From IMG/VR virus record IMGVR_UViG_2579778941_000001: 64,000 nt of DNA. One strand, written 5' to 3'. Both the position numbers and the translations under genes were made by a program. Under the pieces are notes generated by a model that saw nothing but the letters and a program-made list of their open reading frames with translations, was not told where the DNA came from and made no database searches. The stretch is from a virus. Taxonomy: Duplodnaviria > Heunggongvirae > Uroviricota > Caudoviricetes. Below are positions 52,302 to 54,523 of the stretch, one piece after another (the stretch's first letter is position 1; each line of letters starts with the position of its first letter).

Positions 52302-52351
52302 TCACTTGTTAGCTACGTTTCAAAGATATACATTATTGCTCTAATTATTTT
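52302..52351. promoter_or_regulatory. Divergent control region: late-promoter-like AACAAGTGA (minus, 52302-52310) for lyz and C1 operator ATTGCTCTAATTATTTT (52335-52351) before ssb
   Basis: Both motifs seen directly. Confidence 0.5.
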
Positions 52352-52370: not shown

Positions 52371-52859
52371 GTGGCACAACGCGGTGTAAACAAAGTCATC
52401 CTGATTGGTACCCTGGGGCAAGACCCGGAGATCAGGTATATACCAAATGGCGGCGCGGTCGGAAGACTCAGCATCGCAACGAATGAATCATGGCGCGACA
52501 AGCAAACGGGCCAACAGAAAGAGCAAACAGAATGGCATAAAGTCGTTTTGTTCGGAAAACTTGCTGAAATTGCGAGTGAGTATTTAAGAAAAGGTTCTCA
52601 GGTCTACATCGAAGGGAAACTTAAAACCCGTAAGTGGACAGATGACGCCGGTGTAGAACGTTACACGACGGAAATTATCGTCAGCCAGGGCGGCACCATG
52701 CAAATGATCGGCGCTCGCCGTGACGATTCACAGTCCTCAAATGGCTGGGGGCAATCAAACCAACCTCAAAACCACCAGCAATACAGTGGTGGCGGTAAAC
52801 CTCAGAGCAACGCCAATAACGAACCTCCAATGGACTTTGACGACGATATTCCGTTTTGA
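52371..52859 (+). CDS. ssb: Single-stranded DNA-binding protein
   Basis: Near-colinear with E. coli SSB: [20 protein letters not shown]...[13 protein letters not shown]...C-terminal DDDIPF tail. Confidence 0.92.
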
Positions 52860-53056
52860 ATGTGTAAAAAACGACTGAAAGAAAAGCGGTGGTCCAGACG
52901 CCGACAAAAGCACGAACTCGCAAACAAACGCCAAAGTTGGCAATGGCACGCGCTTTTCACGAAAAGAACACCCCGAGATATTGCGTTCGCTGGTGGGAAA
53001 ACATTCCTGACCCACCTGAAGGCGCAATACATCAGGTTTTAAGCAGAGGAAAGACT

Positions 53057-53734
53057 ATGAATAACATGACAACGAAAGAGCTTTTGACGGCACTTCCAAA
53101 ATACAAAAGCCATAAAACAGTTCGCGCCTCAAAAATCAAAGATATCGAAATTATCGCCCTAATGGATGTGGTCCTTTTTTGCAACATCGAAGTCGTTGAG
53201 CCAGAAGGGGTAAAAGTCCATGTTGATAAAATATTTTTGCAAAAACACCGACCAGAAATTGGCGGATATCTGGTCGCTTATGAGGACGGATCTCTGTCCT
53301 ATTCACCAGAAAAAACATTTGAAGAAGGCTTTAGTCGGACTAACGACTTCTTCGAAAATGGGGTATCGCTCAGCATTGAAGGTCACAATGGGGTGACATT
53401 CATTACAGCCAGGGACGTAACTATTTCTGCTGGCGGTATCGCTACTCTACAAGAAGAAATCGACCTTGAAGCAGCCGACTTTTCTGACGCGCTGATGTGG
53501 CTGAAGGATGGCAAGAAAGTTGCCCGACGCGGGTGGAACGGCGAAAACCAATTCTGCTGGCTGGTTCCTGAAGGACAGTACCCGGCACGAATGGAAGCCA
53601 TTAAGGGATATTTCCCCGGCGACCTCGTTCCGTATGGTGCTTATTTCGCCTTAAAAAATGCACAAGGTGTAGTTGTTCCGTGGGTGCCTTCTGTAGGCGA
53701 CTTACTGGCATGTGACTGGTTTGTAGTGGAGTGA
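53057..53734 (+). CDS. Two-domain protein; C-terminal about 85 aa resembles DUF2829 (Tad2-like) small phage proteins
   Basis: GAGGAAAG RBS before ATG 53057; C-terminus FSDALMWLKDGKKVARRGWNGENQFCWL...VGDLLACDWFVVE fits my recollection of the DUF2829 pattern (F-x-EAL...K-x-GKK-V-x-R-x-GWNG ... DW-x-VxE). Confidence 0.45.
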   Translation: MNNMTTKELLTALPKYKSHKTVRASKIKDIEIIALMDVVLFCNIEVVEPEGVKVHVDKIFLQKHRPEIGGYLVAYEDGSLSYSPEKTFEEGFSRTNDFFENGVSLSIEGHNGVTFITARDVTISAGGIATLQEEIDLEAADFSDALMWLKDGKKVARRGWNGENQFCWLVPEGQYPARMEAIKGYFPGDLVPYGAYFALKNAQGVVVPWVPSVGDLLACDWFVVE

Positions 53735-53740
53735 TTTAAC

Positions 53741-54523
53741 GTGGAAAATACTAAAGCAATTCAATACCGCCTGCGTAATGGTCAGAGTGTCGAAGTGACC
53801 ATCAATAATGATGGTGTGCCTGGCGAAAAGGTTTCGATCTCTGATCTGGCTATCGAAAAAACCATCATGTGCCACCTTGGCTTTACTGAAGAAGTGAGCA
53901 AAAAGCATGGTGTAGCAATCTGGAGCGCAATGGATACTGGTATGCACAGATTCATTACTGCTCGTACCCCAGGGATGACCATGATGGACCTCATGCAGAT
54001 TGCGCCGCTGTTTGAATGTGAGCCTTTAGATGTATTCAGCAATCCAGCTATCTGCCAGCAGCTATATGGTGAGATGAAACTCGCGGTTACCCCCATTGTG
54101 CTGCATGAAGGATCGCTTGCTGGCGTGTGGAAAGTGGAGCGTATTTCAAGCTACATGCCTTTCCATGTCAACGGCGTAATCACTGGTGAAAATCAACCTG
54201 TTTCCGTTATAAAGTCAGACCTCAAGCGCGCAATTCTTGAAGCAAGTTGTCGAGTTGTCGGCCTGGGCAAACAGTCTTATGTTTCCTTCCCGGCTGGCCC
54301 TGAAGGCCCGGCAGAAATTCTGATTATGGATGCCGATCTGCTATGGCAAATACAGTTTCTGATTGGCAAAAGCATCATCCGCGCTGAAGAACTCGATCAG
54401 TACATTACCTGCACGATGACGGATGAAGTCAAAAGTGTGGCTATAGCCAATGCCCGGAACCTATGTCGTGCTGCATTAACAGAACTGCAAGAAAACACCA
54501 CGGAAGAGGTGGAAAGTGATTAA
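53741..54523 (+). CDS. Hypothetical protein
   Basis: 260-aa ORF (GTG start) between the DUF2829-like gene and the terminase paralogue. Confidence 0.4.
   Translation: MENTKAIQYRLRNGQSVEVTINNDGVPGEKVSISDLAIEKTIMCHLGFTEEVSKKHGVAIWSAMDTGMHRFITARTPGMTMMDLMQIAPLFECEPLDVFSNPAICQQLYGEMKLAVTPIVLHEGSLAGVWKVERISSYMPFHVNGVITGENQPVSVIKSDLKRAILEASCRVVGLGKQSYVSFPAGPEGPAEILIMDADLLWQIQFLIGKSIIRAEELDQYITCTMTDEVKSVAIANARNLCRAALTELQENTTEEVESD

Follow-up and report, generated by a model that had tools for sequence, protein, structure and literature searches.

A gene at positions 53057-53734 of a 64,000-nucleotide stretch of viral DNA (IMG/VR record IMGVR_UViG_2579778941_000001, the whole of which is called the window here) was found to encode a 225-residue protein in which a C-terminal Tad2-family domain is joined through a linker to an N-terminal OB-fold domain related to that of Dec of phage L. 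By its sequence, the window is a P1-like phage-plasmid. The product is interpreted as an early-expressed anti-defence sponge that carries an extra N-terminal module, a reading to which a probability of roughly 0.72 is given on the basis of sequence comparison, the predicted structure and analogy with characterised relatives. The Tad2-family identification is already present in the NCBI annotation and in one survey. The association of the OB fold exclusively with sponge families among its strongly matched Pfam partners is a new lead.

The open reading frame (ORF) proposed in the initial annotation of the window was present as described. It comprises 225 codons and a stop, starts with ATG and ends with TGA, and a GAGG ribosome-binding site lies at 53046-53049, 8-11 nt before the ATG. 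The same coding sequence is annotated by NCBI in near-identical plasmids (WP_001376650.1, 'DUF2829 domain-containing protein'). The 90%-identity cluster of the protein holds 453 member sequences, and a match to PHROG 872 spans its full length.

The C-terminal Tad2 domain

The initial annotation had assigned the C-terminal ~85 residues (142-225) to the DUF2829/Tad2-like family, and a profile search and a structure prediction, the two checks suggested alongside that claim, both agreed with it. The hit to Pfam family PF11195 (Tad2-like, formerly DUF2829) took in residues 141-224 and ran from position 2 to position 73 of the 73-position profile (E=1.6e-22), scoring 80.2 bits against a curated cut-off of 25 bits. 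A sequence search of the PDB returned ModTad2 (9eib and 8v3e, E~6e-21 to ~6e-20), HgmTad2/AcrIIA7 (E 1e-11 to 4e-10), SPO1 Tad2 (E 1e-9 to 7e-9) and SptTad2 (E 3e-9).

The full-length protein was modelled with AlphaFold2 from 45 sequences, giving a mean predicted local distance difference test score (pLDDT) of 76 and a predicted template modelling score (pTM) of 0.45. The Tad2 core scored 75-92, and confidence was low in the insertion (pLDDT 42-61 over residues 171-190, with 10-residue means of 61 and 42, and below 50 for residues 178-190). The first 24 ranks of the Foldseek search were all Tad2 chains, with ModTad2 at 46% identity and a probability of 1.0. Superposition of the model on 9eib, 8v3e, 8smf and 8kbj likewise gave a probability of 1.0, with template modelling scores on the target of 0.61-0.88. 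The predicted fold contains the N-terminal helix, the antiparallel sheet and the insertion with short helices that are typical of Tad2.

The pocket residues were compared with those of the solved proteins (Table 1). In SPO1 Tad2 and HgmTad2, the equivalents of the W160-N161-G162 loop contact the diphosphate and ribose of the ligand. The SPO1 residues W25, N26, W73, S76 and D79 correspond to W160, N161, W209, S212 and D215 of the present protein, and W87, S90 and D93 of HgmTad2 match the last three of these. Across 45 full-length homologues of 38-96% identity, W160, W209 and D215 were invariant. With family membership, fold and pocket residues each observed directly in the sequence or the model, the C-terminal 89 residues are a bona fide Tad2-family domain that has the family fold and the core pocket residues.

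The best sequence and structure match was ModTad2 (also MoTad2; 8V3E, 9EIB) from a Myroides odoratus prophage. It shares the W-N-G and W-x-P-S-x-x-D motifs with the present protein, is 46% identical to it over 87-89 residues and has an insertion of similar length and sequence type. It is a free-standing protein of 89 residues, whereas 136 extra residues precede the domain here, and binding of histidine-ADP-ribose (His-ADPR) and of cyclic UMP and cyclic CMP (cUMP/cCMP) has been demonstrated for ModTad2 only. SPO1 Tad2 (gp34.65; 8SME/8SMF/8SMG) shares the fold and the conserved residues that contact glycocyclic ADP-ribose (gcADPR); however, identity is 33-36% across chains, and its insertion is shorter and different.

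The insertion between the two motifs was 31-54 residues long in the 108 of 120 homologues that fitted the motif pattern, the 46-residue type being the commonest. In these 108, the conserved Trp was followed by N-G (75), K-G (22) or N-A (11); the phosphate-contacting Asn of the loop is thus replaced by Lys in 22 of the 108 clusters. The insertion forms a cyclic-dinucleotide pocket in HgmTad2 and SptTad2, and the cUMP site of MoTad2 lies at the same protomer interface. Alleles were also mosaic, with N-terminal and insertion variants shuffled among homologues. Together, the variation of the insertion, the Asn/Lys exchange and the mosaic alleles suggest, at the level of sequence, a diversification of ligand specificity.

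The N-terminal OB domain and its relatives

The ~140 residues preceding the Tad2 domain, described in the initial annotation as one N-terminal domain, are real and are conserved in the 45 aligned full-length homologues, but they form two pieces, an OB fold and a linker. The OB fold (residues 13-97) was predicted with pLDDT 84-96 in the full-length model, and residues 1-100 modelled alone again gave an OB fold (pLDDT 88.6, pTM 0.79). Four short strands were predicted in the linker (residues 98-135, pLDDT ~50-56), which differs by allele, being strand-like, helical, shorter or absent. In orf114 of phage D6 (2594-3034), residues 1-20, the linker and the Tad2 domain are kept and the OB core has been deleted in frame. 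Other elements carry a dUTPase-Tad2 fusion (P0056) or alleles with different N-terminal segments.

No Pfam family recognised the OB domain, and the only solved relative found in fold searches was phage L Dec (6E3C). The linker recalls the Dec spike in position and composition only; homology of residues 98-135 to the spike is not supported by BLASTP against Dec residues 92-134, which gave nothing significant. A 2026 paper counts six sponge families (Tad1, Tad2, Acb2, Acb4, Sequestin and Lockin) and brings in TadIV-1 to make seven; an OB fold is ascribed to none of these families. Lockin, a curved β-rich hexameric cog reported to have escaped detection in sequenced model-phage genomes, and TadIV-1, a two-helix dimer, were both rejected as the identity of the OB domain, neither being among the fold-search matches.

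A profile of the OB domain was searched against 1.84 billion representatives, giving 4,874 hits at E<=1e-3. This number overstates the size of the family, because two giant top hits that were checked (P0126 and P0129) are Ig/cadherin-repeat adhesins that repeatedly match only profile positions ~59-85. Seven giant multi-stretch proteins were set aside, and the 139 top hits that remained (P0130-P0268) were taken as the sample of relatives; this sample is biased, because Tad2 fusions were used to build the profile. Stand-alone proteins, mostly of 75-175 residues, make up about 62 of the 139, and nine have two tandem OB domains. In the alignment of these relatives, ~20 OB positions were at least 90% conserved, many of them polar. 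The conserved residues include H19, K20, Y71, Y75, D77, S81, S83 and E89, which are polar, basic or aromatic.

Strong Pfam matches to a partner domain were obtained for four families, namely PF21825 (Sequestin, 16 members), PF11195 (Tad2, 15 members), PF13876 (Acb4, three members) and PF24729 (the Acb2/Tad1 hairpin, two members). Every strongly matched partner (4/4) is therefore an immune-signal sponge family. Three more partner families had one weak match each (E ~1e-4 to 8e-4), and most other C-terminal partners were unrelated singletons. OB-Tad2-Sequestin triple fusions (P0132, P0145 and P0153) and a direct OB-Sequestin fusion (P0136) were seen individually. Individual Acb4 and Acb2/Tad1 fusions were not found in two sets of ten candidates that were scanned, and for these the support is the tally of the 139 relatives. 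A fusion of the OB domain to a putative MazG was present in the viral structure library.

Fusions of Tad2 are not new in themselves. Members of the family had been described in the initial annotation as free-standing small proteins, which does not always hold, since Acb4-Tad2 (Pasteurella phage Pm86), Tad2-Sequestin and Sequestin-Acb4 fusions have been published. The first two are functional, and Acb4-Tad2 counteracts Thoeris as well as CBASS. As in these proteins, Tad2 is joined here to a second small phage domain, and close relatives carry a C-terminal Sequestin; the partner here differs in being a Dec-like OB domain, which is neither a known sponge nor a Pfam family. Sequestin itself came to light in a search for uncharacterised Pfam families that occur in fusions with Tad2 or Acb4, an approach by which the OB domain could not surface because it is without a Pfam family.

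The genomic contexts of OB genes were varied. In E. coli phage Bas106 the gene comes after that of a Rha-like regulator, in Klebsiella phage SopranoGao it lies downstream of a regulator at a distance of two genes, and in Pseudomonas phage Dolphis it stands among small hypothetical genes. In Ralstonia phage GP4, the portal gene and the major head gene stand on either side of the gene for gp05 (2486-2761), a stand-alone relative of 91 residues, which also neighbours a CsrA-like regulator gene. This was the sole context seen that suits a structural (decoration) role. In some records, relatives carry the name 'capsid decoration protein'.

Proposed function and alternative readings

The C1-repressor operator upstream of ssb (Table 1) is annotated in both P1 and P7 and is likely to be the control point of the operon that holds the Tad2 gene. 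The P1 late-promoter box (AACAAGTGA) was found in exact copies at the expected positions of LPpro (48567, + strand) and LPlyz (52302, - strand), and neither an exact nor a 1-mismatch copy was found on the + strand between ssb and the Tad2 gene. In the same interval, a terminator/promoter scan found no terminator-like site on the + strand. If the gene is co-transcribed with ssb under C1 repression, the plasmid prophage would not express it, and transcription from the ssb promoters would start soon after infection or induction, a timing that we infer from this layout.

Four copies of the Tad2 domain would be expected to form a tetramer, as in solved Tad2, and the inter-subunit pockets would trap ADP-ribose-derived signals made by TIR proteins, so that the Thoeris effector stays off. 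The oligomeric state and the ligand are both extrapolated here from characterised relatives. The phage-plasmid may in this way be protected during infection or induction in hosts that have Thoeris or Pycsar; type IV Thoeris and Pycsar have been described from E. coli strains.

The ligands of Tad2 proteins vary by member and include 3'-cyclic ADP-ribose (3'cADPR), His-ADPR, N7-cADPR, cUMP/cCMP and cyclic dinucleotides. SPO1 Tad2 sequesters gcADPR, ModTad2 sequesters His-ADPR and cUMP/cCMP and blocks type II Thoeris, and Tad2_71 binds N7-cADPR and 3'cADPR. Ligand specificity is not readable from sequence in this family. The best guess is that His-ADPR is favoured, with or without cyclic pyrimidines, because ModTad2 is the closest characterised relative.

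Several points weigh against the interpretation as an early sponge. In the pocket, G214 replaces T78 of SPO1 and T92 of HgmTad2, and D67 and H71 of SPO1 correspond to Q203 and V207, so that three adenine or water ligands of SPO1 (T78, D67 and H71) are not conserved. Helix α1, which forms the tetramer interface, comes directly after the linker. Searches of PADLOC and NCBIfam with the 225-residue protein gave no match. Some Tad2 homologues fail against some Thoeris types, and Tad2 homologues that had a domain resembling PDB 6E3C (Dec) or belonging to PF21825 were removed by Hadary et al. from their 84-protein screen; the Dec-like OB-Tad2 architecture has thus already been seen by others. The case for co-transcription with ssb comes solely from the gene layout, and the promoter scan was insensitive, as the P1-annotated ssb promoters were not reported by it.

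By analogy with the fusions described above, the OB module most likely serves to bind a second ligand or in assembly, and a capsid tether is less likely. The domain might represent a further sponge family or reveal how sponges are assembled or localised. The first possibility, which is tentative, is that the Dec-like OB domain is itself signal-binding and that one polypeptide neutralises two classes of immune signal. Residues 13-97 would then found an unrecognised sponge family, or belong to a set of dedicated sponge-partner modules, the protein would be a sponge of two specificities, and Dec would be a structural offshoot; the family would have been missed because it has no Pfam entry and was filtered from the published sponge screen. 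The exclusive pairing with sponge families speaks for this, the same fusion logic having revealed Sequestin, as do the OB-Tad2-Sequestin and OB-Sequestin fusions, the OB-MazG fusion, the many short stand-alone OB proteins and the location of OB genes in early or accessory regions of SopranoGao and Bas106. The conserved residues listed above would also suit a binding site. However, the tally of partners comes from the biased sample, the unrelated singletons are more like the partners of a general adaptor domain, the D6 allele dropped the OB core and kept Tad2, the sole characterised relative, Dec, binds capsids, and a literature link between the OB fold and sponges was not found. If this possibility is correct, many short stand-alone phage OB relatives would be anti-defence proteins.

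A little less probable is that the OB domain is a mere scaffold for oligomerisation, solubility or stability, and that the protein is functionally a plain Tad2. The D6 allele, which has Tad2 without the OB core, fits this, as do the alleles in which the N-terminus is swapped for a dUTPase or another segment, the variable linker, and the pTM of 0.45, which suggests no fixed packing between domains. Against a passive scaffold, the ~20 highly conserved and often polar OB positions are more than such a role usually needs. Were it correct, the finding would shrink to another annotated Tad2 homologue.

It is unlikely that the protein is a Tad2 tethered to the capsid, in which the OB domain would stand as a foot on the lattice and carry a trimeric strand-rich stalk, with Tad2 displayed or concentrated at the heads. 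Dec is the sole solved homologue, and the order of an OB fold and then 35-45 strand residues rich in Gly, Ser and Thr resembles that of whole Dec; the position of GP4 gp05 and the records named 'capsid decoration protein' point in the same direction. However, Dec, which is without a Tad2 domain, is a late structural protein whose gene belongs to the head cluster, whereas the gene here is predicted to be early and repressor-controlled: it lies outside a late head module, in the presumed ssb operon behind the C1 operator and without a late-promoter box, which the neighbouring late genes have. P1 is without the gene, and its virions therefore do not require the protein. The linker has no significant similarity to the Dec spike, the OB core was deleted in D6, and the partner domains of the OB family are cytoplasmic sponges, an extracellular sponge being without obvious use.

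The E. coli hosts of P1-like elements are not known to have type II CRISPR-Cas, which counts against the protein being an anti-CRISPR. That role is highly improbable: AcrIIA7, a DUF2829 protein, was originally reported to inhibit type II-A CRISPR-Cas9, and the present protein does match AcrIIA7/HgmTad2 chains (E~1e-9 to 1e-11), but Cas9 binding was never shown for AcrIIA7, which itself binds gcADPR and cGG, and the family has since been reinterpreted as sponges.

The element, its variable slot and neighbouring genes

The DNA flanking the gene is 95-99.9% identical to the Punavirus phages P1, SJ46 and vB_EcoM-Ro157c2YLVW. Equally close are non-mobilizable plasmids of ~90-100 kb from E. coli, Salmonella and Shigella, the best match being typed IncY. 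On these Punavirus and IncY matches, the gene at 53057-53734 is encoded on a mobile element. The genomic layout was observed directly, the order of genes being darB (-), prt, pro, lydD and lyz (-), ssb, the Tad2 gene, the isaA homologue, a 364-residue ORF, hxr and ddrB (-).

Table 1. Coordinates in the window of the gene, its predicted domains and motifs, and neighbouring features
Feature	Position	Strand	Remarks
mat homologue, 222 residues	38998-39666		'maturation control protein' in near-identical plasmid records; upstream of the SIR2 gene
SIR2_2 protein, 434 residues	39723-41027	+	PF13289 E=1.6e-23; cre-proximal slot, between the mat homologue and darB
C1-repressor operator (Ossb/Op21-like, ATTGCTCTAATTATTTT)	52335..52351	+	overlaps ssb promoters; 1 base off the P1-annotated operator
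ssb	52371..52859	+	upstream gene of the presumed operon
Spacer from ssb to the Tad2 gene	52860..53056	+	197 nt; near-identical in P1
Whole coding sequence	53057..53734	+	225 residues: Dec-like OB domain, linker, Tad2 domain
OB-fold domain	53093..53347	+	residues 13-97; related to the Dec OB; motifs YKSHK and GGYLVAYEDGSLSYSP..F.EGF
Gly/Ser/Thr linker, strand-rich	53348..53461	+	residues 98-135
Tad2-like domain	53465..53731	+	residues 137-225; Pfam, PDB sequence matches, fold match
W160-N161-G162 loop	53534..53542	+	aligned with SPO1 W25/N26 and HgmTad2 W21/N22/G23
Variable insertion	53543..53680	+	46 residues between the W-N-G and W-x-P-S motifs; ModTad2 type
W209-V-P-S212-V-G214-D215	53681..53701	+	aligned with SPO1 W73/S76/T78/D79; W, S and D kept
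isaA homologue	53741..54523	+	260 residues; directly downstream partner of the Tad2 gene
ORF, 364 residues	54516-55610	+	overlaps the end of the isaA homologue

The region 52995-53760 of the window was compared with P1 4590-4760. P1 is near-identical up to the ribosome-binding site and ATG, after which the body of isaA begins at once, so that the Tad2 gene is cleanly missing. The P1-annotated start of IsaA (a GTG 30 nt after ssb) is probably too far upstream, because the shared ribosome-binding site and ATG run into isaA. In P7, nmpC occupies the position of the Tad2 gene. Based on its absence from P1, the presence of nmpC in P7 and the mosaic alleles, the Tad2 gene is placed, from the sequences compared, among the dispensable accessory genes. 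The copy of the gene in RCS47 (FO818745.1, 15495-15950) bears the annotation 'part 1' and adjoins an inverted repeat, and it is therefore interrupted by an insertion there.

In phage D6 and one D6-like contig, the Tad2 gene is likewise followed by an isaA homologue; in these elements the pair occupies another site, with cre upstream and a dUTPase gene immediately before it. The Tad2 allele of D6 orf114 and of the dUTPase-Tad2 proteins of D6-like elements is the same as that of the window. They differ in that D6 lost the OB core and has the dUTPase as a separate gene immediately upstream, whereas in P0056 the dUTPase forms the N-terminus.

At >=95% identity, the Tad2 allele was found by tblastn in ~197 plasmids, nearly all non-mobilizable. 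With DefenseFinder, a 2025 preprint reported Tad2 in 56% of the phage-plasmids of the P1 group and in 93% of those of the D6 group, so that it was already known that such elements carry a Tad2 homologue. Clinical isolates of E. coli, Shigella and Salmonella commonly harbour P1-like phage-plasmids, and P1 itself is a workhorse phage; the reference P1 provides a natural null for the Tad2 gene.

Some minor features of the locus were also noted. The 197-nt spacer is open in the frame of the Tad2 gene from a GTG at 52889, which would add a basic, low-complexity extension. The 364-residue ORF has weak similarity to the ATPase of the terminase large subunit (phrog_2, E=2.8e-9). At its position the reference P1 has IS1 and then isaB; isaB was considered as a 3' remnant of this ORF and rejected, as BLASTP found no similarity.

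The initial annotation had also drawn attention to a SIR2 effector on the same element. Such a gene is present, ~12 kb from the Tad2 gene and in a different variable slot, but no link between the two was found. Only the SIR2 part of the 434-residue protein matches the ThsA, DSR2 and PDC-S25 profiles, and no family could be assigned to residues ~250-434. Searches of Pfam, PADLOC, NCBIfam and PDB sequences found no SLOG domain in the protein and no TIR or ThsB in it or its neighbours, and an on-board Thoeris system (a ThsA-type SIR2-SLOG protein with an adjacent TIR protein ThsB) was accordingly rejected. The SIR2 segment was complete in 64 plasmids, compared with the ~197 that carry the Tad2 allele. 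Based on its sequence matches, the SIR2 protein is a probable single-gene NADase defence candidate.

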